The position numbers and the translations under genes were made by a program. From the NCBI GenBank assembly GCA_001552015.1, contig CP010514.1:450001-482000 (forward strand): 32,000 bases of DNA, in the 5' to 3' direction. This document shows positions 2,936 through 21,992 of the stretch, piece after piece (positions within the stretch are counted from its first letter, which is position 1; each line of letters starts with the position of its first letter). The stretch comes from Candidatus Nanopusillus acidilobi (lineage in GTDB: Archaea; Nanobdellota; Nanobdellia; Nanobdellales; Nanobdellaceae). Under the pieces are notes generated by a model. The model worked only from the letters and a program-made list of their open reading frames with translations, had not been told where the DNA came from and did no database searches.

Positions 2936-2985
2936 AAACTAAATTTATACAAAACTCTTATATTTTTTATTTATATTCTATCATA

Positions 2986-3240
2986 ATGAAATATAGTATA
3001 AATAAACTTTGCGGAATGAATAATTTATCTGTAAAGTTTGATAAAGAACTTAATAATGAATTTATTGATAAATTAATAAAAATATTAAATAATTTTGAAA
3101 TAAAGGAAAGAAATGAAAATTCTGTTTGGTTAAAGTTAGAAGAAAAAGATGTATTAATATATAAATATGGAGAAATTATACTTTTAGGCTTTTCTGAAGA
3201 AGAAGTTAAAAATATTTTAGATAAAGCTTTAAATGAATAA
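2986..3240 (+). CDS. small hypothetical protein, 84 aa (weak resemblance to a single TBP-type repeat)
   Basis: It is divergent from sufS across a 50-nt AT-rich spacer. The segment DVLIYKYGEIILLGFSEEEVKNILDKAL resembles the TBP repeat core (xLLIFxSGKxVxTGAKSxxD). This is a weak by-eye similarity only. Confidence 0.4.
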   Translation: MKYSINKLCGMNNLSVKFDKELNNEFIDKLIKILNNFEIKERNENSVWLKLEEKDVLIYKYGEIILLGFSEEEVKNILDKALNE

Positions 3241-3295
3241 AAATTATCTAATATTATAAAATAAAGAGAAAAACTTTAAGCTTGTGACTTTAAAT

Positions 3296-3778
3296 CTAAT
3301 GAGCAGCTAATGTTGCCTGAACAGATATACCATTATATGTAAATGTAAATATATAATAGTAATTTCCTGTATTCCAATCATTAACTATAGTGACTGGACC
3401 TGAACATGATAATAATAATGTTGCTTGTTGACCTGATGGAACTGGTGAATTCCCATTTACTACTGATGCTGTACATGAATCCGTATTACCATCATATGTT
3501 GCATTTGAAGCATAATATTCTGCAGCTGTTATAATTAAAGTATTATTATTAATTGGTACATTTCCATTATTGTATATTATTGCATATATATTACCACTAG
3601 AAACATATATTTGAGGTACATTAAAGGATGTTATTTGTGTAGCTTGAGCAACCTGACTTGAAGTAGCTCCAGTTAATGAAGAAAACATTCCAGATAACCA
3701 TGCATACATTAATCCTGCTATTGCTACTGTCATTACAATTAATAGTATTGTTGCAATAATTGGAGATATACCCTTCAT
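3296..3778 (-). CDS. archaeal type IV pilin-like protein with class III signal peptide
   Basis: The N-terminus MKG/ISPIIATILLIVMTVAIAGLMYAW matches the archaeal prepilin signature: K/R-G, then a cleavage site, then SP(I/V)IATILL plus a hydrophobic helix. The remainder is a Ser/Thr/Asn-rich beta-type domain with N-x-S/T sequons. Confidence 0.7.
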   Translation of the reverse strand: MKGISPIIATILLIVMTVAIAGLMYAWLSGMFSSLTGATSSQVAQATQITSFNVPQIYVSSGNIYAIIYNNGNVPINNNTLIITAAEYYASNATYDGNTDSCTASVVNGNSPVPSGQQATLLLSCSGPVTIVNDWNTGNYYYIFTFTYNGISVQATLAAH

Positions 3779-3880
3779 AAATAATTTAGTAGAATATTGA
3801 TATTTATAAATTTTTGGACTTTAAAAGGTTCATTTACTATAATCAAAATTTAATAAAAGATAATTAAATTAAATTAAAAA

Positions 3881-3955
3881 GGACCCGTAGCTCAGCATGG
3901 ATAGAGCGACGGCCTCCTAAGCCGTAGGTCGGGGGTTCGAATCCCCCCGGGTCCG
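3881..3955 (+). tRNA. tRNA-Arg (anticodon CCT)
   Basis: Hand-folded cloverleaf: acceptor GGACCCG/CGGGTCC, D arm GCTC..GAGC, anticodon stem ACGGC/GCCGT with loop CTCCTAA, and T arm GGGGG-TTCGAAT-CCCCC. The discriminator is G and no CCA is encoded. It is about two-thirds G+C by my count. Confidence 0.9.
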
Positions 3956-3965
3956 CTTAATTAAC

Positions 3966-5162
3966 TTAAGTATTACTTTTTTTATAATATCTTAATCCTA
4001 GCAAAAATAGAGAAGAAATTATATATACATAAACCATCGGCATGAAATCTACAACATAATATGTAAATAATGTTGTATTACCTAGAAAATATACTAAGAA
4101 AAATCCTAAATAAATTGATAATGGATATAAATAAGAAACTGTAACTTTTTTATCTTTTAATATAAATATTAAAGGTGTTAAAATTAGCCAGAGTATCATA
4201 ATATAATTATTTACTAATGCATGAAAACTATTTAAATAAAGATTATTTCCAGAATAAGTTCCCAAATAAAATGGATGAATATTTAATAACCATTGCCATG
4301 GTGAAGAAATTTGATTTGGAGCATTTACAATATGTCCAGATGTAATATCCCATTCTAATGCACCTAAAAAACTTTGATTGAACCAACTAGAGAATCCAAA
4401 ATATATAATTAATGGAAGATTTAAAGATAAATATATTAATAATGGTAATAAAATTACATAAAGAAATCTTTTTATTCTACTTATATTAATTCCTTTAATA
4501 TAATATAAAAGAGGAAATATTAAAAATGCTCCAGGAAATTTTGAAGAAAAAGCTAGTCCAAAAGATATTGATGATTTTAGTATATCGTCTTTTATTAAAT
4601 AATACAATGATAGTAAAGAAAAGAATGATACATATATATCTAACATAGCTATTCCATGCATTACCCATATATTTGGATCTGAAATAATTAAAACTGAAGT
4701 AATTATTCCTGCAATATTTCCAAATATATTATTACCAACAATTTTTCTAGTTATTAAAAATGATAGAATTATCATTAAATCTCCTAATATCCAGCTAGGA
4801 ATTCTCCAAACCCAATAATTATATCCTAAAAAATATATAAAGATGCCAATTATATATTTTGCTAAAGGTGGATGTTCAAGATTAAAATAATTTGTTAAAT
4901 CTTTTCCAGAAGGAAATGGAACAGTTTGATTTATATTTAAATGAAATATTTTTGTCATAATATTATATGAAGCTGGAGCATACCATACTTCATCTGAAAT
5001 ATATGAATTTATGGGATAAAATACAGAAACTGTTTGATAAGTATAAATTAATAATAAAATACCTAAAATTATATAAAAGGTGTATTTCTTTATAAATCCA
5101 TATAATTTATTTATTATCCTATTTTTCTTTAAAACATCAATAATCCTAAATAAATTTTTCAT
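3966..5162 (-). CDS. GT-C fold glycosyltransferase, PMT/GT39-like (dolichyl-phosphate-mannose protein mannosyltransferase family)
   Basis: It is a polytopic membrane protein of 398 aa. The first-loop acidic motif YISDEVWYAPASY (D57-E58, nt 4989-4994) resembles the PMT DE motif. NLEHPPLAKYIIG (nt 4857-4877) closely resembles the PMT signature DVHPPLAKML. Confidence 0.7.
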   Translation of the reverse strand: MKNLFRIIDVLKKNRIINKLYGFIKKYTFYIILGILLLIYTYQTVSVFYPINSYISDEVWYAPASYNIMTKIFHLNINQTVPFPSGKDLTNYFNLEHPPLAKYIIGIFIYFLGYNYWVWRIPSWILGDLMIILSFLITRKIVGNNIFGNIAGIITSVLIISDPNIWVMHGIAMLDIYVSFFSLLSLYYLIKDDILKSSISFGLAFSSKFPGAFLIFPLLYYIKGINISRIKRFLYVILLPLLIYLSLNLPLIIYFGFSSWFNQSFLGALEWDITSGHIVNAPNQISSPWQWLLNIHPFYLGTYSGNNLYLNSFHALVNNYIMILWLILTPLIFILKDKKVTVSYLYPLSIYLGFFLVYFLGNTTLFTYYVVDFMPMVYVYIISSLFLLGLRYYKKSNT

Positions 5163-5201
5163 TATTGATCTATCTTAAAAAAATTTAAAAAGCTAGATTA
5201 T

Positions 5202-6395
5202 TTATGATAAACTTTCTATATAAACTTCTGGCATAATTCCATCTGGTGGATATGTTCTTCCAACAACCCAGTATATAGATTGTGAAGATGTTGATTGAGA
5301 ACCATCTCCAGCACCAATGGCAAAGTAATCTCCTGATAACATATTTTTATTAATTTCTATTTCTGGAGTCTGATTTGTATTTTCTAATGTTCCTAATAAA
5401 GAAATTGGTGGAATATTATTTAATACAAGGTATCCTGCTTGTACATATGTATTATTACAGAAATCAGCTAAGAAATATGAATAAATATATGAATGATTTT
5501 CTTTTATAAATGGTCCTTTATATAATTGAATATTACCAAGATTTCCTATATATGAAACATATATTGCAGGTTGTAAATTATAATATTCATATTGAACAAA
5601 TATAGAATTATATAATGTTGGTGTATATCCGCCAAACATATTTGCTCCTGCTGCATATACAGGAACTTTTCCACCATACATTGAAATTAAATTTGCATCA
5701 GCTTCCCCATTATAATACCATCCTTCTTCAATAATTATTGGTATATTTGATATATTTCCATTGTTTGGAGGTTCTATATATGATCCTTGTGATGATGTAT
5801 TATTTAACATTTCAATTCCATCAATAGTTGGAGTTGGGAAATAACTTCCATTTTCAACATTTAAAATCCAGTTATCTTTTGTATCATAAAACCAACCATA
5901 AAAATCAAAGACAAGTTGTCCATTATCATAAATACTTAGAGGTCCCCAACTATAATTATCATATACATAAGATGACATACCAACATAAGGAGAATATTCT
6001 TCATAATAATTTTCTCCTGCAGGTCCTATATACATATAAATTGTAATATTTGAATATGGAGGAATTGAACTTGGCAATCTTACCCACCAAATAGAATAAT
6101 TACCATAATATCCTGCAAACCATGAATATAAAATTGATCCTGTAATATTACTTAAATTTGTAAAGAAGAAAACATTTGATCCATTTTCGTTTATTCCATA
6201 TTCATTCATTATAGAACTATTTATATATATTTCTTGCTGAAATGGTGAAAAGACTACGCAATTTGTTGGATTATATATTGATAACTCTAATATTTTTCCG
6301 CTACTATATGTTTTAGTTTGATAACCCAAATAATATATTACTCCAAAAATTACAACAACAAGAGCTAATAATATAAATAGATTTCTCATATTCAT
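5202..6395 (-). CDS. secreted or anchored DUF2341-like protein, N-glycosylation sequon-rich
   Basis: It has an N-terminal signal anchor, MNMRNLFILLALVVVIFGVIYYLGY. The segment NVFFFTNLSNITGSILYSWFAGYYGNYSIWWVRLPSSIPPYSNITIYMYIGPAG matches the DUF2341 pattern (..vWVkvPsi.a..tttIYmYYGn). It contains many N-x-S/T sites. Confidence 0.55.
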   Translation of the reverse strand: MNMRNLFILLALVVVIFGVIYYLGYQTKTYSSGKILELSIYNPTNCVVFSPFQQEIYINSSIMNEYGINENGSNVFFFTNLSNITGSILYSWFAGYYGNYSIWWVRLPSSIPPYSNITIYMYIGPAGENYYEEYSPYVGMSSYVYDNYSWGPLSIYDNGQLVFDFYGWFYDTKDNWILNVENGSYFPTPTIDGIEMLNNTSSQGSYIEPPNNGNISNIPIIIEEGWYYNGEADANLISMYGGKVPVYAAGANMFGGYTPTLYNSIFVQYEYYNLQPAIYVSYIGNLGNIQLYKGPFIKENHSYIYSYFLADFCNNTYVQAGYLVLNNIPPISLLGTLENTNQTPEIEINKNMLSGDYFAIGAGDGSQSTSSQSIYWVVGRTYPPDGIMPEVYIESLS

Positions 6396-6436
6396 AAACT
6401 AATATTGATAACAATTTTTTTAAATAATTTGTTATT

Positions 6437-7630
6437 TTATATTAATAGTAACAGACCTAAAATTCCTGCTATAGATATCAATACATAATTTATATTTTCA
6501 GAAACTACTAAAGTAGGTGAAGAAGATCCCATTTCGACATCAAATTGATAGTTTCCATATCCTATGTATTGTCCGTTTACATAAACATCTATATCAACAT
6601 CTGTTAAACCTGGAGATAATACAAGCATTTTAAATGGTATTACTAATGAACTATTTGGCTGTAAAGGAGAAGATATGGTAATATTGTTTAATGTTGTTAT
6701 TGGTAAATTATTATATAATAAAATTACACTATTTCCAATAACTGAAAAAGTTAAAGTTATATTATTAATTGTTGCATTACCAGAATTTGTTATATTTAAA
6801 TAAAATACTGGATTTTCAGACTGTACGGGGAAACTAATTGATCTATAGAAAGTTTGATTAATAGAATTAATACTCAAAATACCATGCAAATATATGATAG
6901 AATTATATATAAGAGTAGTGGTTGTTGTAGTAGTTGCATAATTTGTGACCGTAGATGTTAATGTAGTAGTAGTTGTAGTAGTTATAGTAGAGGTTGCTGT
7001 ACTGGTGATTGTTGATGTAGTTGTATTTGTTACATTTGTAGTATATGTTTGAGTAGTAGTTACTGTTGAAGTATTAGTAACTGTTGCGGTTAATGTAGAA
7101 TATGTTGTACTAGTGACTGTTGACGTAGAAGTTAATGTTGAAGTAACTGTGGTATAAACTGTACTCCATATAGTGTTTGTAGAAGTTGCTGTACTAGTAA
7201 CTGTTGTATATGCTGTATTAGTAACTACTGATGTATAAGTTAATGTTGTTGCAACTGTGGTATAAACTGTTGAGGTAACTGTTGTATATATGGTATTAGT
7301 GATAGTCTGCGTATTTGTAACTGTTGTATAAACTGTGGAAGTAGATGTTGATGTTGTATATGCTGTACTAGTAACTGTTGAGGTACTAGTTAATGTTGTT
7401 GCAACTGTAGTGGTAACGGTTGTCGTGGTAACTGTTGTATATACAGTATGAGTGGTTGTATATGTACATTCTAGTAAGCAATCTCCTGCCACACTACAAT
7501 ATGTGCATATACTGCTTGCACCACTAAAAGTAGTACAAATGCTACCATAAGCAACATTAAATATTTTTATAAATAATATTAAAATGAGCATAAATTTTAG
7601 AATCGTTTTTATTTTATTAATAGCACCCAT
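6437..7630 (-). CDS. Thr-rich surface protein: signal peptide, Cys-rich cap, ~180-aa Thr/Ser/Val/Tyr tract, CARDB-like beta-sandwich, C-terminal TM anchor
   Basis: The signal peptide is MGAINKIKTILKFMLILILFIKIFNVAYG. Six Cys follow within ~25 aa, then the long tract (..TVYTTVTSTVYTTVATTLTYTSVVTNTAYTTVTSTATSTNTIW..). FYLNITNSGNATINNITLTFSV resembles CARDB/NEW3-type domains. The C-terminal helix is NYVLISIAGILGLLLLI. Confidence 0.7.
   Translation of the reverse strand: MGAINKIKTILKFMLILILFIKIFNVAYGSICTTFSGASSICTYCSVAGDCLLECTYTTTHTVYTTVTTTTVTTTVATTLTSTSTVTSTAYTTSTSTSTVYTTVTNTQTITNTIYTTVTSTVYTTVATTLTYTSVVTNTAYTTVTSTATSTNTIWSTVYTTVTSTLTSTSTVTSTTYSTLTATVTNTSTVTTTQTYTTNVTNTTTSTITSTATSTITTTTTTTLTSTVTNYATTTTTTTLIYNSIIYLHGILSINSINQTFYRSISFPVQSENPVFYLNITNSGNATINNITLTFSVIGNSVILLYNNLPITTLNNITISSPLQPNSSLVIPFKMLVLSPGLTDVDIDVYVNGQYIGYGNYQFDVEMGSSSPTLVVSENINYVLISIAGILGLLLLI
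6912..7465 (-). repeat. in-frame degenerate Thr-codon repeat tract inside CDS 6437..7630
   Basis: The plus strand reads as reiterated gta/agt/tgt/ggt units, which are ACN, GTN and TAT codons on the minus strand. It contains blocks 7116-7148 and 7152-7198, which are identical to blocks in the neighbouring gene. Confidence 0.8.
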
Positions 7631-7631
7631 T

Positions 7632-8378
7632 TTATGATTGTATTAAAGTATAATAAGTTTGATTGGCCGTAACAGTCGAAGTTAAAGTAGATGTAGTAGT
7701 TGTATAAACTGTTGATGTACTAGTAACTGTAGATGTAGAAGTTAATGTAGTAGTAGTTGTTGTATAAACTGTACTCCATATAGTGTTTGTAGAAGTTGCT
7801 GTACTAGTTACTGTTGTTGTAACTGTTGTATATGCTGTATTAGTAACTGTTGATGTACTAGTAACTGTATTTGTAACTGTAGTATAAACTGTGGAAGTAG
7901 ATGTTGATGTTGTTGTAACTGTTGTATATGCTGTATTAGTAACTGTTGACGTAGAAGTTAATGTTGAAGTAACTACTTTAGTAACTATTGCAACAGCTGT
8001 ATTAGTAACTGTTGAGGTAACAGTAGCTGTAGCTGTTGAGGCAACATTTGTTATGACAGTAGTAGTTGTATAAACTGTTGATGTACTAGTAACTGTGGTA
8101 TAAACTGTGGAAGTAGATGTTGATGTTGTAGTAACTGTTGTATATACAGTACTAGTGGTTGTAGATGTAGAAGTAGCTGTAACTGAAGATATAACAGCTA
8201 ATGTGACTTTAGTAGTAGAAGAAGCTAAAGTAGTACAGATTGCATAGATGGGAGTAGATAAGCGAACAAAGATAATTATAAATATAATCAATATAATCAG
8301 AATCTTATACAACTTATACACAATACTTCCTTTACTTCTGCCCTTATCAAACATTATAAAATATTTTTTATATAGCAT
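7632..8378 (-). CDS. Thr-rich secreted protein, shorter paralog of 6437..7630 (no CARDB-like domain or C-terminal anchor)
   Basis: The N-terminal signal anchor is KILIILIIFIIIFVRLSTPIYA, followed by ICTT as in the neighbour. The rest is almost entirely T/S/V/Y/A/N, and it shares the peptide TSTATSTNTIWSTVYTT with the neighbour. Its stop lies 1 nt from the next ATG, in a different frame. Confidence 0.6.
   Translation of the reverse strand: MLYKKYFIMFDKGRSKGSIVYKLYKILIILIIFIIIFVRLSTPIYAICTTLASSTTKVTLAVISSVTATSTSTTTSTVYTTVTTTSTSTSTVYTTVTSTSTVYTTTTVITNVASTATATVTSTVTNTAVAIVTKVVTSTLTSTSTVTNTAYTTVTTTSTSTSTVYTTVTNTVTSTSTVTNTAYTTVTTTVTSTATSTNTIWSTVYTTTTTTLTSTSTVTSTSTVYTTTTSTLTSTVTANQTYYTLIQS
7647..8234 (-). 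repeat. in-frame degenerate Thr-codon repeat tract inside CDS 7632..8378
   Basis: It has the same unit composition as 6912-7465. Blocks 7762-7808 (47 nt) and 7942-7974 (33 nt) are identical to 7152-7198 and 7116-7148 respectively. Confidence 0.8.
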
Positions 8379-8397
8379 AATTTATAAAGCTTTTTCA

Positions 8398-9603
8398 TTA
8401 TTTTCTCATAAGCAAATAAATAACTAAACCTAAAACTATTACTAAAACTATTACAACTTTTATTTCTGTATTATAATTAGAAGAAGAACTTATTGTTTGA
8501 TTTGTTAAATAATATGTATAACATATATTTGAAAGATATGTTAATCCATTTAATTCTTTTTGATATGTTAAGTTAAAACATAAATCTTCTCCATTTATCA
8601 TTGGAACATTATCATAAATATATATATATTCTGTAGAATTGTACAATAAATTTCCTATATTAATTGAATCTTGGAAATTCTGATTATCAGAATATATTGT
8701 CAATCCAACATTATATAAAACATGATTCCTATTATCATTTGGATATGTAGATAAAATTACTAATAAAGTTCCATTATTATTTAAGTATATCCCATTAAAA
8801 GATAATGACTCTCCATAAACATAGTAAGGTATAATGTATAGATCTTGTAATAGATTATCAGAATATACTTCAATTAAAATATAATATATCCCTGGATATA
8901 GATTTGATACATTAATATTATCATAAATATAATTATATCCTTTATTTAATTCTACATTAAAAGAATTATTATATATTGCTCCATATAATATAGCATCCCA
9001 ACTGGCTAGTTTGATATTTATTGTTGCATTAGTATTATATAATGAATATAAACTTAAGTTTAAATTTAATATCCCATTATTATTTATTAATTCTGTTTGA
9101 TTCCTTACAATACCAATCCATGGATAATTACCAATACTAGGATTATTTATGTAAATATTTTCAAATACTGGTGTAGAAAAATTGTTCGGATTACCAATTA
9201 TATGCTTTGTAGCAGTATATAGATAATATAATAATTCATAATTTCCTGAAGATATGTTTTCTGGAATTTGATATGAAAAGTTTACTGTATAATTTTCATA
9301 TGGAAATAAATTTGATATACTATTTAATTCTGCAAATAATACTTGAGTACCAAATGATGAATTTTCATTAACTAGCATTATTCCTAAAAATATTTGTGGA
9401 TAATAATATGGATCATTATTTTGTATCAAAACATATCCTGTAATATTTTGTCCAGCCAAAAATTCTTGATTATATAAATATGGAGTAATTGTAATATTTG
9501 GAATATAACTTTGATTATAATAATTAATTTGATAAGAGAAAATATTCCTAGTTGATAAAAATATAAGGAAAGATAATAAAATTAATAATACTTTCTTTTT
9601 CAT
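8398..9603 (-). CDS. surface glycoprotein candidate: signal peptide, beta-rich sequon-dense ectodomain, C-terminal TM anchor
   Basis: The signal peptide is MKKKVLLILLSFLIFLSTRNIFS and the C-terminal anchor is KVVIVLVIVLGLVIYLLMRK. There are more than 15 N-x-S/T sequons by eye. Motifs SGNYELLYYLY and PGIYYILIEVYS are typical of Ig-like/CARDB-type adhesin domains. Confidence 0.6.
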   Translation of the reverse strand: MKKKVLLILLSFLIFLSTRNIFSYQINYYNQSYIPNITITPYLYNQEFLAGQNITGYVLIQNNDPYYYPQIFLGIMLVNENSSFGTQVLFAELNSISNLFPYENYTVNFSYQIPENISSGNYELLYYLYTATKHIIGNPNNFSTPVFENIYINNPSIGNYPWIGIVRNQTELINNNGILNLNLSLYSLYNTNATINIKLASWDAILYGAIYNNSFNVELNKGYNYIYDNINVSNLYPGIYYILIEVYSDNLLQDLYIIPYYVYGESLSFNGIYLNNNGTLLVILSTYPNDNRNHVLYNVGLTIYSDNQNFQDSINIGNLLYNSTEYIYIYDNVPMINGEDLCFNLTYQKELNGLTYLSNICYTYYLTNQTISSSSNYNTEIKVVIVLVIVLGLVIYLLMRK

Positions 9604-9635
9604 ATATTATCCTTAAAGAAAATATTTATAAAAAT

Positions 9636-10100
9636 TTATATCCAATTATTTCTCTTTAATCTTAATAAAAAGGATAATGCTTTAGCAGCCTCTTCTGGAG
9701 ATTCAAATACTGGTAAATATTCCTCAACAGATATTTTTATTTGTTCTGTAAATCCTCCCCCATATATTAAAAATACTAAAGGAACTTTTTTATTAATTAT
9801 TTTTGATAATTTTTCAGGAAATTTTTCTGTAAAAAAAGGTAATTGAGGTAATAATATTGCAATTATTCCTTCAGTTCTTGAATCATTTAATAAAATCTTT
9901 AATCCTTCTATATATTGATCTTCACTTGCCTGAGCTGTAGTATCTATTGGATTATGAAATGAAGCAAAGGAAGGTAAAATATTTTTTAATTTTTCTTTAA
10001 TATCATCTGGTGTTTCTTCTATTTTAATATTATTTTCTTCTAAAGCATCTGTTGTTAAAACACCCTCACCCCCTCCATTTGTATATATGTAAATAACCAT
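9636..10100 (-). CDS. acetyl-CoA synthetase (ADP-forming) alpha subunit, C-terminal part (domain 5-like) encoded as a separate ORF
   Basis: MVIYIYTNGGGEGVLTTDALEE...LPSFASFHNPIDTTAQAS aligns with the ACD alpha pattern RVAIITNAGGPGVLAAD...LPxxASxxNPVDxxA. The ATG lies 2 nt after the stop of 10103..10978. Confidence 0.7.
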   Translation of the reverse strand: MVIYIYTNGGGEGVLTTDALEENNIKIEETPDDIKEKLKNILPSFASFHNPIDTTAQASEDQYIEGLKILLNDSRTEGIIAILLPQLPFFTEKFPEKLSKIINKKVPLVFLIYGGGFTEQIKISVEEYLPVFESPEEAAKALSFLLRLKRNNWI

Positions 10101-10102
10101 TA

Positions 10103-10978
10103 TTATAAATAGAATGCTAGAGTTTTTAAATAGATCATAAAATCTCCCATACTTTTTGCTTCAATTATATTATGTTGTTTAAATAAATTTCTATATACTT
10201 CATAATCTCCTGCCATAGATGCTGTATGAGAAGAAACTGCAACAGAACCCCTTTTTGTTTTTCCAGATTTTAATACTATTATTGGTCTATTTAATTGACT
10301 TGCAACTTCTAAAAATTCTTTACCTCTTCCTTCTCTTAATCCTTCCATATATATAAATATTGCCTTGGAATTTTGATCATCCTTTAATTCTTTTAATATT
10401 TCAACCTCATCTAAATCAATTTTATTTCCATAAGAAATTATCTTTGATACACCAATATTTTTACTTGATAACCATTCCATAACCGCTAAGGCAATTGCAC
10501 CAGATTGGGACAATAGAACAATTTTTCCTTTCTTTGGTCTTATTAATCTTTTATCATCAACAAAAAATGTATCTATACCATTATATGGATCATATACTCC
10601 CATACCATTTGGTCCCAATATTCTTATTCCATATTTTTTTGAATATTCTAATATTTTTTCTTCAAGATCTTTTCTTCCAACTTCAGAAAAACCAGCAGAA
10701 ACTATTATTGCCAATTTTACTCCCTTTTCTCCAGCTTGTTTTATAACTTCAGGAACACCTTCTGCAGGTATTGCTACTACAACAGCATCTATATTTTCAT
10801 TTATTTCAAGAATATTTTTATAGCATTTTAGATTATATAAATTATCGTAATTTGGATTTATTGGATATATTTTTCCAGGAAATCTTTTAATAAAATTCTT
10901 TAATATTATATTTCCAACCTTTCCTTCTTTATTACTTGCTCCTACAATTGCAACAGATTTTATATCAAATATACTCAT
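10103..10978 (-). CDS. acetyl-CoA synthetase (ADP-forming) alpha subunit, N-terminal part (CoA-binding domain and phosphohistidine loop)
   Basis: SVAIVGASNKEGKVGNIILKNF is a CoA-binding Rossmann motif. QSGAIALA is present. SSHTASMAG matches the phosphohistidine loop (SHTGA/SLAG). Only 291 aa are encoded, versus about 450-460 aa for usual alpha subunits. Confidence 0.8.
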   Translation of the reverse strand: MSIFDIKSVAIVGASNKEGKVGNIILKNFIKRFPGKIYPINPNYDNLYNLKCYKNILEINENIDAVVVAIPAEGVPEVIKQAGEKGVKLAIIVSAGFSEVGRKDLEEKILEYSKKYGIRILGPNGMGVYDPYNGIDTFFVDDKRLIRPKKGKIVLLSQSGAIALAVMEWLSSKNIGVSKIISYGNKIDLDEVEILKELKDDQNSKAIFIYMEGLREGRGKEFLEVASQLNRPIIVLKSGKTKRGSVAVSSHTASMAGDYEVYRNLFKQHNIIEAKSMGDFMIYLKTLAFYL

Positions 10979-11377: not shown

Positions 11378-12625
11378 CTATTCAATTAAGACACTTTTTA
11401 TACTATCGTTTGTTTCAACATCTTTAAAGAACCTTTTATATAGATATATATTTGCAATATTAACTATAAATGCCAATAAGAAGGGAATTTGTAAAGCTAA
11501 ATAATCTATCATAAATCCACTAAATATTGCTGCAATAGCAGATGGAAATAACCTGGCAGCTTGATTCATGCCGGTTGCCGTAGACCTTGAATCTTGACTA
11601 ACTAAACTCATCATTAAAGATGATTGAGTTGGCAATGAAATAACTCTAAACATAATATAGGTTAAATATAGTACTAATGCTATTATTAGATCATAAATTA
11701 AGATTTGAGAGAACCTATTCACAAATGGTAGTAATACTAGAGCTACAGTAGATATAGATCTAGTTAACACAACAGTCCTAACAAAACCAAGCTTATCAGT
11801 TATTATAGGAGTTAAAAGCGATGCAAATGCGGCTACTATACCACCAAGGAAAAATATATTACCTATCTCACCCTTAGGAACTTTAAGTAATACTTCAAAA
11901 ATCAAGGGTAGAAATGGTGTTACCAGCCCTTGTCCAAGACCATTTAAAGTTCCAGTAGCTACAAAAATTTTGATGATTTTCTTATCTGATTCATGCTTAT
12001 TATTTGAATTAAAGGAATGTCTACTGAGACTTTCACTATATCTATCACTAACCGGTAATATTGCAATTAGTGAAGCTAATGAAAAGATTAAAGCTATTAT
12101 AAATTCCTCCCTATAACTTAAGTGAGATAATAATGCCCCAAATGCTCCAGCCAGACTTAAAGATAAGAAAAATAGAGAATAAATCTTTGTCCTGTTCTTT
12201 TCATTTGTTTTATCTGCTAGTAAAGCATTCATTATTGGAGCTGCCACCGCACCTGCACTACCACTTGCCAATGCACCAGCTGTACCAAAACCACCCAGTG
12301 CAGCAGCTACCAAAAGGAAAGGATAGCTTGAAGCTAAAAGGAGAATTAGTATTGATAATGGTAAAAAAGGTAAGATAACCATAAGTACTCTCTTCCTACC
12401 ATAATAATCTCCTAATCTACCAAAATAAATGCTCATTAATGGAGCTGAAAATGCTCCAACACCAAAGAAAATTCCTATCAACATGAAAGATAGGTGAAGT
12501 ACATTATAAAGATACAATCCAATAATAACTCCAAGAGCACCAGTTGCAATACTTCTAAAAATTCCAGATAAGAGTATAAGAATAATATCATTTTTATCAT
12601 CCATTAACCAATCTACAACGATCAC
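11378..12625 (-). CDS. MFS transporter
   Basis: It is 415 aa with about 12 hydrophobic segments. The MFS motif A-like GRLGDYYGRKRVLM lies between TM2 and TM3, and Gly/Ala-rich helices are present. Confidence 0.8.
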   Translation of the reverse strand: MIVVDWLMDDKNDIILILLSGIFRSIATGALGVIIGLYLYNVLHLSFMLIGIFFGVGAFSAPLMSIYFGRLGDYYGRKRVLMVILPFLPLSILILLLASSYPFLLVAAALGGFGTAGALASGSAGAVAAPIMNALLADKTNEKNRTKIYSLFFLSLSLAGAFGALLSHLSYREEFIIALIFSLASLIAILPVSDRYSESLSRHSFNSNNKHESDKKIIKIFVATGTLNGLGQGLVTPFLPLIFEVLLKVPKGEIGNIFFLGGIVAAFASLLTPIITDKLGFVRTVVLTRSISTVALVLLPFVNRFSQILIYDLIIALVLYLTYIMFRVISLPTQSSLMMSLVSQDSRSTATGMNQAARLFPSAIAAIFSGFMIDYLALQIPFLLAFIVNIANIYLYKRFFKDVETNDSIKSVLIE

Positions 12626-12833: not shown

Positions 12834-13592
12834 ATGATATTGGAAAAAATTACCTCAAAATATATTAATTATATAACTGTAAGAAATTATGATAAAAACA
12901 AAAAATATATTGGGCAAGATTGCATTGTAAAATATTTATTAAATAGGAAAAAATTATATAAAGATGATGGAGAAATTATATACAAAAATTTTATTGAAGT
13001 AAAATATAATAAAGATGCAAAAGAAGAAATAGATATACAAAAAGAAAAAATATTAAAAGATATTGAAAATGAAAAGAAATTCCTAATAGATAATTCATTA
13101 TATAATTTATTACCAAATAAGGGAAAAATTAGTTTAAAAATACAGATTTCTCAATCATTAAGAGTTATAAGAGAATATTTATTTGATAGTAATTTAATAT
13201 TAATTGGGGATATCGATTATTCCTTTTTAGGTAAAAATCTTGTAAATATATATAAAAAACAGGAAGATTTTGATTTCTATAAATATAAAGCAATAATATT
13301 AGATCCTTATGGAGATGAAATATTAAACAACGAAGATTTAAATAAATATAACTTATTCATTCTAGGAGGAATTGTTGATATTGATCTAAATTGGCAATAT
13401 GCAACACAATATTTATTTAGAAATATTGATTTACCACATAAAAGAATAGAATTATATGGGTCTATAAAGAATGTTCCAGATAGAATAAATATATTAATAA
13501 AGATTTTATTAGACTCTATTTATTTAAATATTCCATTAGAAAAATCTATAGTAATTAATTCACCAAAAAAATTTAGTAAACGCGTTCAATAA
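12834..13592 (+). CDS. putative tRNA methyltransferase, Trm10-like SPOUT domain
   Basis: AIILDPYGDEILNNEDLNKYNLFILGGIVD resembles the Trm10 core (vyLTaDS..L...d..vYIIGGLVD). The downstream LPHKRIELYGSIKNVPDRINILIKILL resembles the Trm10 C-terminal knot region. The similarity is moderate and by eye. Confidence 0.5.
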   Translation: MILEKITSKYINYITVRNYDKNKKYIGQDCIVKYLLNRKKLYKDDGEIIYKNFIEVKYNKDAKEEIDIQKEKILKDIENEKKFLIDNSLYNLLPNKGKISLKIQISQSLRVIREYLFDSNLILIGDIDYSFLGKNLVNIYKKQEDFDFYKYKAIILDPYGDEILNNEDLNKYNLFILGGIVDIDLNWQYATQYLFRNIDLPHKRIELYGSIKNVPDRINILIKILLDSIYLNIPLEKSIVINSPKKFSKRVQ

Positions 13593-14406
13593 TATTATAT
13601 AAATTTTCATAAACAGAATCTGGATGTTTTTCAATATATCTATCTAAGTTTCTTGTTATTTTATCAATATCTATTTCATTAAATACCTTTCTTAAATTAT
13701 TTAAGTCCCTTTCATTAAATCCCTTACTTATTATTTCTTTAATTTTATCTCTATATCTATTTTCATATTCTTCTAAATCTTTTATATCCCTATCTTTATA
13801 TCTAAAGAATTTATAAAATAAAGAAAATAATCCAAAATTATAAAAATATAATGTATGCTCCAAACCACTTTTTTTAATTAATAGATTTCCTTCTGTATCG
13901 ATCATTATATATAATTTTAAATTCAATAAATCTGCTTTTATATAAGAATATATTCCATATAAGTTTGGAATTATTAATTCTTCTCCATTTAAACTTAACC
14001 CAAATCCATAAACATTATTTGGTAGAAATTCATATTTATATCCTCTCATTTCAATATATTTTGTTACAATATCTCTTTGTTCTATAGTTCTTTGTTGATC
14101 TATGCATACTATATCAATTACATTACTTACATCTTTTTCTCTAAATTTTAAGATTCTTGTTATTTCTATATTCCCAGTTGTAGAACAACCATCAATAATT
14201 ATACTATCTAAATTCATATATCTTTCTATTTCGGCAAACGGTACCCTTTTCCTTTTTATTCCTTCATGAAATCTTGCATTATATAAAAAGATCATATGTT
14301 GAATTTCTGAAACTATTGGAAGATAATATTGAGGATTTGACAATTTATTAGAATTATTTATTATATCTCTAGCATCCCAAATTGTTGATTCAAGATTATT
14401 AACCAT
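13573..14406 (-). CDS. hypothetical protein, 277 aa
   Basis: It is a long ORF filling the space between the Trm10-like gene and tRNA-Gln, with a convergent 20-nt overlap with 12834..13592. The only motif noticed is SIIIDGCSTTGN, which weakly recalls a PRPP-binding loop (hhhhDDhxTTGxT) but lacks the second Asp. Confidence 0.45.
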   Translation of the reverse strand: MVNNLESTIWDARDIINNSNKLSNPQYYLPIVSEIQHMIFLYNARFHEGIKRKRVPFAEIERYMNLDSIIIDGCSTTGNIEITRILKFREKDVSNVIDIVCIDQQRTIEQRDIVTKYIEMRGYKYEFLPNNVYGFGLSLNGEELIIPNLYGIYSYIKADLLNLKLYIMIDTEGNLLIKKSGLEHTLYFYNFGLFSLFYKFFRYKDRDIKDLEEYENRYRDKIKEIISKGFNERDLNNLRKVFNEIDIDKITRNLDRYIEKHPDSVYENLYNIIERVY

Positions 14407-14437
14407 AAAAATTATTAAATAATTAATTTTATAAGAA

Positions 14438-14510
14438 TAGCCCCGCGGGGATTCGAACCCCGGTCTCAGGGACCAGAGCCCTGAATCCTAGACCACTAGA
14501 CGACGGGGCT
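14438..14510 (-). tRNA. tRNA-Gln (anticodon CTG), A1:U72
   Basis: Hand fold: acceptor AGCCCCG/CGGGGCT, D arm GTCT-AGTGGTCTA-GGAT, anticodon stem CAGGG/CCCTG with loop CTCTGGT, and T arm CGGGG-TTCGAAT-CCCCG. The discriminator is A, the length is 73 nt, and no CCA is encoded. An A1:U72 pair is typical of archaeal tRNA-Gln. Confidence 0.9.
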
Positions 14511-14559
14511 TTCCTAAATATAAATTTATAAAAATAAAAATATATAGATTTATTCATAA

Positions 14560-14967
14560 ATGAATAAGGAATATAAAAGAATATCCATTAAGGACGTAAA
14601 GAGATTAATAGCAATAGTAAAGATAAATAAAAATGAGAGTTTTATAGATATTATTAGAGAATTTTCTAATGATTTTGCAAAAATTTTAAATAGTAGATTA
14701 TTATATTATAAAATTTATCTATTTCCAGCAGATTTTGAGGGAAATAAAGATATAACATTTACAGGAATCTTAGCAACATCCCATATAGTAATAAGTAGCT
14801 ATACTGAAGAAGACGGAATTTATATAGACATAGATGCTGCATGGTGCAGTGGAGAAAAATTAAATAAAGAAAAATTAGAAGAATTACTTAAAAAATATTT
14901 TAAAAATTATGAAATAAAATCTTTTAAGATATATGATTATCTTGGTGAGGAAAGCCTTCTCAGCTGA
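14560..14967 (+). CDS. pyruvoyl-dependent decarboxylase-like protein (S-adenosylmethionine decarboxylase SpeH/SpeD family, divergent)
   Basis: GILATSHIVISSYTEEDGIYIDIDAAWCSGE aligns with the family core (v)isESHltIHTwPE.gyaaiDlftCG. The self-cleavage serine context is T-S-H instead of E-S-H. The size (135 aa) fits. Confidence 0.45.
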   Translation: MNKEYKRISIKDVKRLIAIVKINKNESFIDIIREFSNDFAKILNSRLLYYKIYLFPADFEGNKDITFTGILATSHIVISSYTEEDGIYIDIDAAWCSGEKLNKEKLEELLKKYFKNYEIKSFKIYDYLGEESLLS

Positions 14968-14998
14968 TAAATGATGAATGCCAAGTTCACTGATAGAT
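14939..14998 (+). ncRNA. C/D box sRNA candidate (2'-O-methylation guide)
   Basis: The layout is canonical. C box GTGAGGA is at 14945-14951, followed by a 12-nt guide aagccttctcag and D' box CTGA at 14964-14967. A 3-nt loop taa follows, then C' box ATGATGA at 14971-14977, a 12-nt guide atgccaagttca, and D box CTGA at 14990-14993. Short flanks atct (14939-14942) and agat (14995-14998) can pair. An L7Ae gene is present in the window. Of about 30 TGATGA hexamers I scanned on both strands, this was the only one followed by CTGA at exactly +12. Confidence 0.6.
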
Positions 14999-16213: not shown

Positions 16214-17005
16214 TTATAACAAAAAGAAAAAGCCTATAGATATAATTGTTAAAATTATGCTATGAATTATACCAGACTTTATAGTTCCCTTTGCAAGTTT
16301 TCCAATAACCAAACCTGTAAAAATTGCGTTAATTAATAATAGTAAAAAAGATAAGAACCTATATATATTTATTAATTCATAATATGATTCTTTATTAAAT
16401 GAGAAACCCAATGATTTTATATTAATTATTAAATAATATACTGCAATAATAGATAATAAAACTCCAAGATATAATCCATAATATGTATAGGTAGTAAGCT
16501 TTAGTTGAGATAATCTATCCTTTTTAATCATTTCTAAATTTCTTATACTTTCTGATAATGTATCTAATAAGTTACTTAAATCCCCACCACTTCTTAAAAC
16601 ATTATTTATATTTGATAAAACTTCAGATATTTCTAAATTATTTATCCTTTTTGCAGAATCATTTAATGCATCATAGAAAGTTTTTCCATATTCCATTTCA
16701 GAAATTATATACTTAATTTCTCTATTCAATCTTTTTCCATAATAATTATTTGATACACTCTTTAAAGCAACTGGCAATGGTTGTCCTATTTTTAAATAAT
16801 GTGATAGATCTCTTAAAAATAATGGAAAATTATTTACCATCTCTTCATACTCTAAATATTCTTGAAGATATTTTAATGAATAAATTAAATATAATAATAC
16901 AATTATTCCAATTTTAACAAATATATTAATATTTATTGGTAAGAATATGAAAAATATTGAAAAAACAGTTATTAAAGATATATATAATATGTCCTTTTTA
17001 TTCAT
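16214..17005 (-). CDS. type II secretion system F-domain membrane protein (FlaJ/TadC/PilC-like platform), single domain
   Basis: FPLFLRDLSHYLKIGQPLPVALKSVS...EMEYGKTFYDALNDSAKRI...LRSGGDLSNLLDTLSESIRN is a T2SSF domain flanked by TM helices. At 263 aa it is about half the size of archaeal FlaJ/PilC. Confidence 0.7.
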   Translation of the reverse strand: MNKKDILYISLITVFSIFFIFLPININIFVKIGIIVLLYLIYSLKYLQEYLEYEEMVNNFPLFLRDLSHYLKIGQPLPVALKSVSNNYYGKRLNREIKYIISEMEYGKTFYDALNDSAKRINNLEISEVLSNINNVLRSGGDLSNLLDTLSESIRNLEMIKKDRLSQLKLTTYTYYGLYLGVLLSIIAVYYLIINIKSLGFSFNKESYYELINIYRFLSFLLLLINAIFTGLVIGKLAKGTIKSGIIHSIILTIISIGFFFLL

Positions 17006-19346: not shown

Positions 19347-20951
19347 CTACGAAACTACTTCAATTTCTTCACTTTGAGCTTCTAAATTATTATTATATTT
19401 TGATTCTGATTCATTATGTCTTATTTTTCCATATTCCTTTGCAAGATATATTATTTCTGCATATTTCTCTGCAAGCTCTTCTGGATCAACTTCCTTTTCT
19501 AGCATTTCTATTGCTTTCTTATTTACATATTCATCATACTTTCCATTCTTAATTTCTTCAATAATTCTCTTAGTTAGATTAACGAGATCCTCATATGTTC
19601 TAAATGCTGTTTGATCATTTAGATATCCCTCTTCTTTTAATTCTTTTAATCCATCAACATCTCTATATATTGCTAAGAGTTTTCCAAATATAATAGCCTC
19701 TAAAGTAGAGAGACCATATGATTCTAAATATGTTGGATTAATATATATTGTTGAGTTTAATTCTCCGAGCGCTTTTAATAATCCTATATAATATAAAGGA
19801 TATTCATGCAAAGAATTACCCAAAGCCTTGCTATATATATCAACTTCCCCTCTTCCATATTTATTTACAATTTCTTCTAATTTTTTATATTCTTCAGTAT
19901 CTTCTCCAAAATCTGGAGAAATAATTATTAATCTTACATCTTCACCTTCTTTAACTAAATCTTCAAACAGCCTTATTATATCATCAATTCCTTTCTCTTT
20001 TGATCTTCTCCCTACATAAAGCAAATTTATATTATTGCCTTTGTTATACAGATTCAAATAATATTTTTTATATTCTTCTATCTCATTTCTATAATACTTA
20101 TCTAATGTTATCATGTACATAGGCTCATGTAAAGCTATTCTTTTCTTAATATTTGATCCACTAACATTTTTTATGAATCTACTATTAGAATCACTAACAA
20201 TATATGTAGGAAACATACTAATTACATTTTCTGATTCAGTAAGCTTAGTAAATGTATATATATACTTCTTTACTTCATCTAACCACCAAGAATATTTTTC
20301 TCTAAATTCTATGGCTTCTTCAGTATTAGAATTCGATAAATATTCTATTATATCTATTAATTCTTTTTGATCTCTATCATCCATATAGCTTCTAATTAAT
20401 TTTCTATTAAGTAATGAATATATTTTATTCTTGGTTCTTTCACTTATATTTTTTAATCTACCAGAATTCATAAATTCCACAAGATTATATAAGAAATTAC
20501 CAGGATAATCAGTATGAAACATTATCATATAAGCTCCATTATTAGATAATATTTTATCTAAATCTTCTTTCTTTTCAAAACTATCATTATAAATACCAAA
20601 ACCAACACTAGTAATAAATTTAAAATCTGAACTAGATAACTCATTTAATATATCGTCCAATCCAATTCTTTCAGATATACCATCATAATTTTTATTAGCA
20701 AGCCCTATAATTCTCTTTATATCTTTATTTTTATATATTCCATATAATTCATTAAAATCAACTTTAAAATATTCTACTTTACCATAAGGATTATATACCA
20801 TTACGTAAAAATCTATTTCAACATCCCCTAATTTATTTTTAAATAATTCAAGTAATTCATATAATCTTAAAAAAGATAATGAAGCACCAATAGAAAAAAT
20901 TTTAACACCCGAATCCCACCTATGATCTAATAATACTGCTAATTTTTTCAT
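19347..20951 (-). CDS. GT-B glycosyltransferase (GT4-like C-terminal domain) with a long unassigned N-terminal region
   Basis: The C-terminal part has YINPTYLESYGLSTLEAIIFGKLLAIY, the E-x7-E motif of retaining GT4 enzymes. The N-terminal ~290 aa were not assigned. Confidence 0.65.
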   Translation of the reverse strand: MKKLAVLLDHRWDSGVKIFSIGASLSFLRLYELLELFKNKLGDVEIDFYVMVYNPYGKVEYFKVDFNELYGIYKNKDIKRIIGLANKNYDGISERIGLDDILNELSSSDFKFITSVGFGIYNDSFEKKEDLDKILSNNGAYMIMFHTDYPGNFLYNLVEFMNSGRLKNISERTKNKIYSLLNRKLIRSYMDDRDQKELIDIIEYLSNSNTEEAIEFREKYSWWLDEVKKYIYTFTKLTESENVISMFPTYIVSDSNSRFIKNVSGSNIKKRIALHEPMYMITLDKYYRNEIEEYKKYYLNLYNKGNNINLLYVGRRSKEKGIDDIIRLFEDLVKEGEDVRLIIISPDFGEDTEEYKKLEEIVNKYGRGEVDIYSKALGNSLHEYPLYYIGLLKALGELNSTIYINPTYLESYGLSTLEAIIFGKLLAIYRDVDGLKELKEEGYLNDQTAFRTYEDLVNLTKRIIEEIKNGKYDEYVNKKAIEMLEKEVDPEELAEKYAEIIYLAKEYGKIRHNESESKYNNNLEAQSEEIEVVS

Positions 20952-20966: not shown

Positions 20967-21992
20967 CTATGGTGATATTTGAGTTGGTTGCTGACCTGGT
21001 TGTTGATTTTGAGGTATTATTACAAATGGTTGAGGTGGAGGTACCAATCGATTACCTTGTTGTGCTTGTTGTCCTAATGGATTACCTTGTCCTCCTGCTC
21101 CTAGAGGTGCTAATGGAAGATTTTGTCCTTGAGGCTGTCGAGGTTGATTACCTTGTCCTGCTGGTTGCTGGGCTGCTTGTTGAGGAGGTTGTTGCAATGC
21201 TTGACCTATGTAACTGCCAATTTTTTTGTACATTTCATTAAATGTATTATTGTATAATCCTATTTGACCCAATTTATTCAATATTAATGCTACTGCTTCT
21301 GGAATTTGTACTTTTGAATACATTGAATATATTGATCCTTCCATAGTAGATAAGAATGTTTCATTCAATGTAGACATTAATCTAGTTGAAGATTCTAATA
21401 ATGATATATTTGGAGTCTTAGATATTATATATGATCCTATTAGATTTGTTACCCCACTATATGCACCATACAATGTTGAAGCATATTTATCTAGATTTGC
21501 CATAATTTCTGACTTTGTTACATTCTTTCCTATTGAATTATAATATTGAGATAATGATTCTGGTAATAATTCTGCAATTATATTTGCAATATTTTGTGCA
21601 TTCTCTCTTTCTTGTCTAGTAGCATATTCTCTTTTACCAGTAATTGGATCTGGATATCCTAATTTTTTAAGGCCTCTTATATACAATGTTGATAGTAAAG
21701 ATATATTAGAAAATGTACTGTTTCCAAATATATTTTGTTTATATATATTTCCCATATCCTTATATAATTGTGAAGGATCAATACCATCTTTAGTAGAATT
21801 AATATTAAATCCTTCAATTGTATATTTTAATGATTTATTTACTTTTGGGTCTAATTGCATCTCTATTTGTTTTGCAGTAGCTTGTAAAGTATCACTAAGA
21901 GAACTTATTACTGCATTGTATACGTCCTTACGTAAATTGTCATCTGTACTTAATTGATTAAATGCACTTTTAACAACATCGTCTAACGCCAT
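20967..21992 (-). CDS. hypothetical protein with a Gln/Pro/Gly-rich low-complexity C-terminal tail
   Basis: It is 341 aa with no signal peptide. The first ~260 aa are of ordinary composition. The last 78 aa contain about 24 Q, 16 P and 10 G (hand count), encoded by a locally G+C-rich stretch. Confidence 0.6.
   Translation of the reverse strand: MALDDVVKSAFNQLSTDDNLRKDVYNAVISSLSDTLQATAKQIEMQLDPKVNKSLKYTIEGFNINSTKDGIDPSQLYKDMGNIYKQNIFGNSTFSNISLLSTLYIRGLKKLGYPDPITGKREYATRQERENAQNIANIIAELLPESLSQYYNSIGKNVTKSEIMANLDKYASTLYGAYSGVTNLIGSYIISKTPNISLLESSTRLMSTLNETFLSTMEGSIYSMYSKVQIPEAVALILNKLGQIGLYNNTFNEMYKKIGSYIGQALQQPPQQAAQQPAGQGNQPRQPQGQNLPLAPLGAGGQGNPLGQQAQQGNRLVPPPQPFVIIPQNQQPGQQPTQISP

Follow-up and report, generated by a model that had tools for sequence, protein, structure and literature searches.

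The O-glycan of Sulfolobus is a single mannose, which has been modelled on the thread subunit (PMC11607397) and is also found on cytochrome b558/566. Sulfolobales pilins are densely O-glycosylated as well, on serines and threonines that include outward-facing residues of β structures (PMC7347861). As the first-pass annotation of the locus described here had stated, the archaeal enzyme that attaches such sugars is still missing, and a 2024 cryo-EM study terms it 'currently elusive' (PMC11607397). The nearest well-described enzymes are the protein O-mannosyltransferases (PMTs) of family GT39, among them yeast Pmt1/2/4, the actinobacterial Pmt (e.g. M. tuberculosis Rv1002c) and the GT39 enzyme of Caldicellulosiruptor bescii, whose deletion is reported to abolish protein glycosylation in that bacterium (PMC6151902). 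In archaea, Agl1 'bears a PMT domain' (Lombard 2016, PMC4973528); O-mannosylation was then undescribed in archaea, and the same author suggested that archaeal PMT-domain proteins might carry it out. Here we describe a gene unit in a 32,000-nucleotide stretch of the Candidatus Nanopusillus acidilobi genome (contig CP010514.1, forward-strand positions 450,001 to 482,000; hereafter the window) that places a PMT-like membrane glycosyltransferase (GT) beside two secreted threonine-rich proteins, T1 and T2, and two further surface proteins, p397 and p401.

Neither the gene nor the general idea is new. The GT is the ortholog of Nst1_360 and Nps_02605 (arCOG00561, annotated as 'predicted Dol-P-Man protein mannosyltransferase', Dol-P-Man being dolichyl-phosphate-mannose), a divergent homolog of such enzymes was recorded in Candidatus Nanobsidianus stetteri (Nst1; Podar et al. 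2013), and an 'archaeal PMT' had already been proposed. What is new is the conserved pairing of the GT with period-2 poly-threonine proteins, the recurrence of such neighbours in DPANN archaea, and a family of lectin-fold proteins with pilin fusions. The first-pass annotation had read the locus as a candidate pairing of an enzyme with its substrates. The adjacency proves to be conserved and the pairing plausible; glycosylation itself stays an unproven prediction, and it is weighed below against other acceptors.

A conserved five-gene surface operon

The locus had been described as six minus-strand open reading frames (ORFs), with 39, 41, 1 and 19 nucleotides between the last five, all encoding exported or membrane proteins. 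Coordinates and gaps match exactly (Table 1), and each of the six proteins has an N-terminal hydrophobic segment; the GT is polytopic, and T1 and p401 also carry a C-terminal segment. The grouping of all six genes into one module has to be revised: the conserved unit comprises five genes, in the order of transcription p401, T2, T1, p397 and GT, and leaves the pilin outside. A tRNA-Arg on the plus strand lies between pilin and GT, which therefore makes the pilin a separate unit. This tRNA is identically placed and oriented relative to the GT in four related loci (L009, L005, L011 and L012), and it is only in these closer relatives, with GTs at least 86% identical, that the pilin adjoins the GT. 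In the most divergent relative (L001/L013, GT 63% identical), other genes replace the pilin and the remaining five keep their order.

Conservation of the neighbourhood, on which the first-pass annotation had staked its reading, is indeed found, with the five-gene order retained in L009, L010, L012 and L001/L013, down to 63% GT identity. Syntenic orthologs of p401 occur in L009, L010 and L001/L013, while those of T1 span 362-428 amino acids and those of T2 206-253 (L009, L010, L012 and L013). The window has a G+C content of 17-33% and the locus one of about 25%. Even in such DNA, the long ORFs stay in frame, with varying lengths, across five related loci, and they are thus not chance reading frames. 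The five genes form a conserved cell-surface operon of Nanopusillus/Nanobsidianus-type Nanoarchaeota. A matching gene order is tabulated for N. acidilobi under Nps_02575-02640 in the gene table of Wurch 2016 (Supplementary Data 1), which runs from CTP synthase and SufS through a secreted protein, a 'Dol-P-Man-protein mannosyltransferase' and four uncharacterised proteins with 1-2 transmembrane segments to an acyl-CoA synthetase, a regulator and an MFS protein.

The members of the locus diverge at very different rates. Compared with their Nst1 orthologs, the GT is 95% identical, p401 90%, p397 81%, the pilin 69%, T1 66% and T2 56%, and the tract lengths of the threonine-rich proteins differ. 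GTs from Candidatus Nanopusillus metagenome-assembled genomes (MAGs) are 86-94% identical to that of the window. A conserved GT accompanied by fast-diverging T1, T2 and pilin is what would be expected of a housekeeping modifier with exposed clients.

Table 1. Positions of the features at the locus, numbered from the first letter of the window
Feature	Position	Strand	Description
Pilin gene	3296-3778	-	UpsA-like type IV pilin with class III signal peptide; neighbour, separate transcription unit
tRNA-Arg(CCT)	3881-3956	+	Found by ARAGORN; between pilin and GT; bounds the five-gene unit on its downstream side
GT gene	3966-5162	-	398-aa GT-C enzyme with about 10 transmembrane helices, GT39/PMT_2-type
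DE motif of GT (Asp57-Glu58)	4989-4994	-	Directly after the first transmembrane helix, in the predicted first extracytoplasmic loop
p397 gene	5202-6395	-	N-terminal transmembrane anchor, β domain and L-type (ConA-like) lectin-fold domain; sequon-enriched
T1 gene	6437-7630	-	Signal peptide, short Cys-rich segment, Thr tract, globular C-terminal domain of about 130 aa, C-terminal transmembrane anchor
Thr tract of T1	6893-7480	-	Residues 51-246
T2 gene	7632-8378	-	248 aa, Thr-rich, secreted; N-terminal hydrophobic segment, no C-terminal anchor
Thr tract of T2	7635-8237	-	Residues 48-248
p401 gene	8398-9603	-	First gene of the unit; signal peptide and C-terminal transmembrane anchor

Family, fold and relatives of the glycosyltransferase

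The label of a PMT-like GT-C enzyme, given on first reading, stands at the level of the GT-C fold, of Pfam PMT_2 (PF13231; 34.5 bits, cutoff 26.1) and of the PMT hallmark motifs, whereas membership of GT39 proper is not established. The AF2 model, for which 43 homologs were used, has a pLDDT of 93.4 and about ten transmembrane helices. In a Foldseek comparison with the PDB, the model is closest to Pmt4 of C. thermophilum (E=5.8e-7, TMq 0.66), and further matches include Pmt1/Pmt2 and ALG12; the oligosaccharyltransferases AglB and PglB are weaker, AglB ranking 11th or lower (E=2.8e-3). Sequence identity to the solved PMTs is 15-18%. The Pfam PMT and PMT_2 models also cover GT83-type enzymes and are thus not specific for protein acceptors. 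Neither the predicted fold nor the Pfam matches suffice by themselves to tell GT39 and ArnT-type enzymes apart.

Searched against all PDB sequences, the profile of the GT family matches Pmt4 and Pmt1 alone, at weak E-values of 0.068 and 1.8, and the single GT sequence matches nothing there. ArnT is absent among the PDB sequence matches (E<=10) and the NCBIfam matches (E<=1), and STT3 among the Pfam and NCBIfam matches. A clear assignment to ArnT or AglB, which would have undercut the first interpretation of the gene, thus emerges from none of the profile, PDB-sequence and Foldseek comparisons. The profile alignment places the HPPLAK, R120 and LD175 motif of the GT on HPPL[AG]K of Pmt1/Pmt4, R138 of Pmt1 and LLD. 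Together with D57-E58 (local sequence YISDEVWY), these positions are invariant or nearly so among 43 aligned homologs, Asp57-Glu58 being strictly invariant. Since a K/R-rich N-terminus precedes the first transmembrane helix, the positive-inside rule predicts that the DE loop faces outward.

In all these respects the GT resembles the GT39 enzymes, which share its GT-C fold, the DE motif in the first outward loop, HPPLxK, the arginine and LLD, and which are its best matches in both sequence and fold. Its position beside Ser/Thr-rich secreted proteins, the classical clients of PMTs, adds to the likeness. The enzyme differs from them in being just 398 residues long, in scoring far under the NCBIfam Pmt cutoff and in having candidate clients with proline-free, period-2 tracts. 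Eukaryotic PMTs carry MIR domains in loop 5 and a C-terminal PMT_4TMC domain, neither of which Pfam detects in the GT at E<=1; bacterial PMTs likewise have no MIR domain.

The closest homologs outside the Nanoarchaeota are from Sulfolobales (Saccharolobus, Sulfolobus, Stygiolobus and Acidianus), at 47-50% identity and 89-96% coverage. In a neighbour-joining tree, the Nanopusillus GTs group with a Sulfolobales/Thermoproteus clade, and the next branch consists of DPANN sequences (Nanoarchaeota FK2.bin89, Micrarchaeia and L006). As to a possible recent transfer of the gene from host to symbiont, the Nanopusillus clade is a neighbour of Sulfolobaceae in this tree and does not nest within them. A metagenome scan with the Micrarchaeia-like GT returned its own contig alone.

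Threonine tracts, lectin folds and pilins

The threonine-rich pair is as unusual as first described. Threonine makes up 52% of the T1 tract and 47% of the T2 tract, as against 0-11% in the other proteins of the window. Both tracts are 63% serine plus threonine and have neither proline nor glycine, with a single charged residue in T1 and two in T2. Threonine follows a strict period-2 order (T-x-T-x): its autocorrelation is negative at lag 1 (-0.38) and positive at lag 2 (+0.32), and the pattern lasts to lag 24. Such proline-free, alternating sequences suggest an extended or β structure with one all-threonine face. A classical mucin-type or Pro/Thr/Ser linker is ruled out by the absence of proline and the strict period-2 order. 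At the DNA level, the tracts consist of 54-nucleotide (18-residue) repeats common to the T1 and T2 genes, which points to duplication or to gene conversion between these neighbouring paralogs; the best pair of repeats between the genes, 7083-7204 and 7693-7814, is 81% identical.

N-glycosylation sequons (N-x-S/T) are not enriched in T1, which has 9 where 11.5 are expected, and T2, which tends to depletion, has 1 against 3.7, apparently because asparagine falls on the alternate positions that threonine leaves free. If the tracts carry glycans, these should therefore be O-linked. A likeness to CARDB had been suggested for the C-terminal domain of T1, a label that the profile search does not support: no Pfam family matches at E<=1, and the seven homologs of the domain are close orthologs alone (80-99% identical). 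Fungal Als and Flo11 are Thr-rich adhesin stalks O-mannosylated by PMTs. They offer a general parallel in their Thr-rich repeats, their anchoring at the surface and their pairing with a PMT-type enzyme; they are not homologous to T1 and T2, they use a glycosylphosphatidylinositol anchor where the archaeal protein has a membrane anchor, and the period-2, proline-free tracts are found here.

Ser/Thr-rich neighbours recur near related GTs elsewhere. In 80 genome loci, each ORF was scored by its maximum serine-plus-threonine fraction in any 60-residue window. Of the 418 ORFs lying no more than three genes from the GT, 11 reached a fraction of at least 0.5, compared with 3 of the 781 lying farther away; 8 of the 11 come from one Nanopusillus/Nanobsidianus clade. 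All three informative DPANN lineages have such neighbours. Besides Nanopusillus, these are Nanoarchaeota FK2.bin89 (L029), where class-III-signal proteins with Thr-rich tails lie to either side of the GT and a Thr-tailed protein lies immediately upstream (6620-8494, 9049-9906 and 12890-14981), and a Micrarchaeia-like contig (L006) encoding a 733-residue pilin-like protein with a poly-Ser tail (2949-5150). Among the crenarchaeal loci sampled, no Ser/Thr-rich neighbour was found near the GT except in one Desulfurococcales MAG (L087), where a Thr-rich secreted protein is encoded 124 nucleotides downstream (11450-12256). The contexts of two distant GT homologs (P0034 and P0048, the latter from Pyrobaculum) consist of uninformative housekeeping genes. 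In two Acd1-type Sulfolobales loci (L026 and L027, with the putative host GT ortholog), secreted proteins of 603-618 residues, with maximum Ser/Thr fractions of 0.62-0.65, are encoded 6-7 kb upstream.

The remaining two proteins of the operon are rich in sequons. As noted on first reading, p401 is sequon-dense, with 17 where 7.7 are expected (P=0.0005); p397 has 14 against 5.4 (P<0.0005). Both are thus probably N-glycosylated. The hydrophobic segments of p401 span residues 4-24 and 376-401. It has no informative Pfam domain, and weak Ig-like Pfam hints appear in its homologs alone; it probably folds into tandem β-sandwiches. Only 26 homologs were retrieved among 1.84 billion representatives, some of them as the N-terminal module of proteins of 1100-1400 residues.

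For p397, the proposed likeness to DUF2341 survives in part. Pfam gives no match for the window protein itself, while four of 44 sampled family members match PF10102 (best E=1e-6). In the AF2 model (pLDDT 84.7), the C-terminal part of about 250 residues is a jelly-roll with the ConA/L-type lectin fold. The best Foldseek match is ERGIC-53 (E=1.5e-7), followed by legume lectins, VIP36, Emp46/47 and the mannose-binding YwfG; 64 PDB entries match at E<=0.001, and the top ones listed are mainly L-type lectins with target TM-scores of 0.5-0.65. Identity to these lectins (ERGIC-53, VIP36, Emp46/47 and the legume proteins) is 6-15%, and p397 is, by its jelly-roll fold, a putative sugar-binding protein. 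The invariant positions of the family are rich in tryptophan and tyrosine and include a YDNG motif. Its 90 homologs, nearly all from Nanopusillus-type sources, form a large paralog family.

This family is connected to pili. Four of the 44 sampled members match Pilin_N, and in many paralogs (P0116, P0125, P0177 and P0184) the lectin-fold domain is fused behind an UpsA-like pilin domain, with 58 bits to the UpsA model. These fusions are candidate glycan-binding pilins, and they suggest that displaying glycan-recognising domains on pili is a recurrent feature of this lineage. The pilin of the window, recognised from the start by its class III signal, matches TIGR02537 with 37.8 bits (cutoff 20). 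It aligns with the NCBIfam UpsA model over its full length (E=8.6e-35), at 119.8 bits and under the cutoff of 130, and reaches 22.4 bits against Pfam Pilin_N, under the cutoff of 25.2. The whole-length match recalls the Ups pili of Sulfolobales. The differences are the score below the UpsA equivalog cutoff, the absence of UpsE, UpsF and UpsB genes next to the pilin, and paralogs that fuse the pilin to a lectin fold; we know of no such fusion for Ups. In Sulfolobales, regions of UpsA and the N-glycans of the S-layer mediate species-specific recognition (PMC7064770). A gene for a membrane platform protein of the T2SSF/FlaJ-TadC-like type (263 aa, 16214-17005, minus strand) lies beside a phosphoenolpyruvate synthase gene, 12 kb from the pilin, and could be a pilus assembly component.

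Possible acceptors of the enzyme

The reading that we favour, while holding it tentatively, is that the GT O-glycosylates serines and threonines of secreted proteins from dolichyl-phosphate-hexose, with T1 and T2 as its principal clients and p397 and p401 as N-glycoproteins displayed alongside them. The catalytic DE loop would lie on the outer face of the membrane, where the enzyme would take a single hexose, probably mannose, from the lipid carrier and transfer it to Ser/Thr hydroxyls of proteins leaving the Sec channel, much as bacterial and fungal PMTs do. Tracts of about 200 residues, half of them threonine, would be the main acceptors. With threonine at every second position, one face of the extended or β structure would become coated with sugar. 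The product may be an uncharged, glycan-covered stalk or fibre that resists heat, acid and proteases, attached to the membrane in the case of T1 and unattached in that of T2. On this model, p397 and p401 could serve as co-displayed binding modules with a possible role in attachment to the host.

Several observations weigh against O-glycosylation by the GT. Its score against the Pfam PMT model (PF02366) is 22.1 bits, just under the cutoff of 22.7, and its only NCBIfam match, the actinobacterial (bacterial) Pmt model, reaches 49 bits, where the cutoff is 800, over residues 30-193. ArnT follows Pmt4 as the second fold match and is nearly as good (E=2e-6, TMq 0.56-0.57). When the neighbourhood counts are taken by independent lineages, about 3 Ser/Thr-rich neighbours are observed where about 1.5 are expected, which is not significant. 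The tracts, moreover, contain no proline, unlike classical O-glycosylated linkers. The gene table of Wurch 2016 gives no proteome values in N. acidilobi for any of Nps_02595-02625; this absence is weak evidence, because tryptic sites are missing from the tracts and glycopeptides go undetected in standard searches. Further objections come from better-studied archaea. The S. acidocaldarius ortholog lies at the agl1 (saci0421) position of agl1-agl2-agl3-agl4, where it overlaps an NTP-transferase gene; genes for an SQD1-type epimerase and a BadF-type kinase come after that gene (L004). The agl2-agl4 genes belong to UDP-glucose/UDP-sulfoquinovose metabolism and the N-glycan pathway, and Ser/Thr-rich genes are missing from this locus. 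Within this cluster, agl1 has been tentatively proposed to encode the enzyme that transfers sulfoquinovose to the N-glycan (PMC4388408). In Haloferax volcanii, the PMT-like AglS offers an archaeal precedent in which mannose is added to the N-glycan and not to Ser/Thr (PMC4973528).

Agl1 and AglS suggest a different acceptor: the GT may be an AglS-like enzyme that finishes N-glycans on the outer face by adding one sugar from a dolichyl-phosphate-sugar, with p397 and p401 as its clients and the threonine-rich proteins merely co-expressed. Such a role is the leading alternative, though rather unlikely in our estimate. In its favour, Agl1 and the window GT belong to the same subfamily, being about 50% identical over some 90% of their length and sharing the PMT domain, and the adjacency of the GT with an NTP-transferase gene is found in most Sulfolobales loci sampled. 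AglS, compared here by description, is an archaeal membrane enzyme that uses Dol-P-Man on the outer face and is reported to be distantly related to PMTs. The significant sequon enrichment of p397 and p401 would supply acceptors. A divergent STT3 homolog has been reported in Nst1 (Podar 2013), and the N. acidilobi gene table (Wurch 2016) has no entry annotated as STT3, oligosaccharyltransferase or dolichol-phosphate mannose synthase, although no search aimed at them was made.

Against this role stand the differences in context and, in part, the chemistry. Agl1 is accompanied by agl2-agl4, whereas the window GT sits in a surface-protein operon, with no NTP-transferase, SQD1-like or kinase gene (agl2-4) near it in the window; AglS belongs to an agl cluster, and its acceptor is an Asn-linked tetrasaccharide. 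The donor proposed for Agl1, UDP-sulfoquinovose, is a nucleotide sugar, and GT-C enzymes are, to our knowledge, not known to use such donors. The glucose of the Sulfolobus N-glycan is added by Agl16, a soluble cytoplasmic enzyme. As the glycan of the agl3 mutant also loses mannose and glucose (PMC11607397), sulfoquinovose would be added on the cytoplasmic side of the membrane. Finishing of N-glycans would also leave unexplained the Ser/Thr-rich secreted neighbours in three DPANN lineages.

A second alternative concerns the tracts and is compatible with the other readings: T1 and T2 may carry no glycan and may self-assemble, through period-2 strands of threonine, valine and tyrosine, into a β-solenoid or cross-β fibre that acts as a structural stalk or fibril. 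Strict alternation, the lack of proline and glycine, an abundance of the strong β-formers T, V, Y and I and the 18-residue repeats would all suit such an assembly, and the repeat families common to T1 and T2 could allow the two proteins to co-assemble. As an account of unglycosylated tracts it is nonetheless distinctly unlikely, given the conserved linkage of tracts and GT; Sulfolobales pilins, moreover, carry O-glycans on β structures, so that fibre formation and glycosylation can go together (PMC7347861). Least probable of all is a lipid or other non-protein acceptor, such as a membrane glycolipid or lipoglycan, with the operon reflecting shared envelope biogenesis: ArnT (GT83), whose acceptor is lipid A, is alike in fold, its family falls within the Pfam PMT/PMT_2 models, and the GT gene has uninformative housekeeping neighbours in most archaeal genomes, but at the sequence level (PDB, NCBIfam) the matches are to PMTs and none to ArnT, the motif is HPPLAK as in PMTs where ArnT has EKPP, and in DPANN lineages the gene stays linked to those for secreted proteins.

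O-glycosylation of the threonine tracts, our preferred reading, would turn the vague arCOG00561 annotation into a concrete prediction, one that can be tested through saci_0421 in the genetically tractable S. acidocaldarius. A wider proposal can be built on it, namely that Agl1/arCOG00561 is the archaeal protein O-mannosyltransferase, that its clients make up a new proline-free, period-2 poly-Thr class forming sugar-coated β fibres or stalks, and that lectin-fold proteins and lectin-bearing UpsA-like pili read host (Sulfolobales-type) glycans during attachment. Taken as a whole, this chain is speculative and we would not expect every link to hold. The Nanopusillus lectin-fold family, with its many UpsA-like-pilin fusions, supplies candidate proteins for recognition of the host in this obligate symbiosis between two archaea. 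Should the GT finish N-glycans instead, it would still account for a step of crenarchaeal N-glycosylation that has no assigned enzyme.

The window also has other features of note. An ORF of 341 codons (20967-21992, minus strand) has no Pfam match, contains 8 sequons where 3.7 are expected (P=0.017) and adjoins a GT1-family glycosyltransferase gene (19347-20951). The N-terminal domain of CTP synthase is divided over two minus-strand ORFs, 98-424 and 483-908, which cover profile positions 165-265 and 1-130, respectively, with about 34 positions missing across the 58-nucleotide gap; the arrangement could reflect a split gene, a frameshift or a pseudogene. The alpha subunit of the ADP-forming acyl-CoA synthetase is similarly encoded by two ORFs, 9636-10100 and 10103-10978 (both minus strand), 2 nucleotides apart and in different frames. 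Since Nst1 has the same 154-residue ORF (97% identical), this second split is conserved and not a sequencing error.

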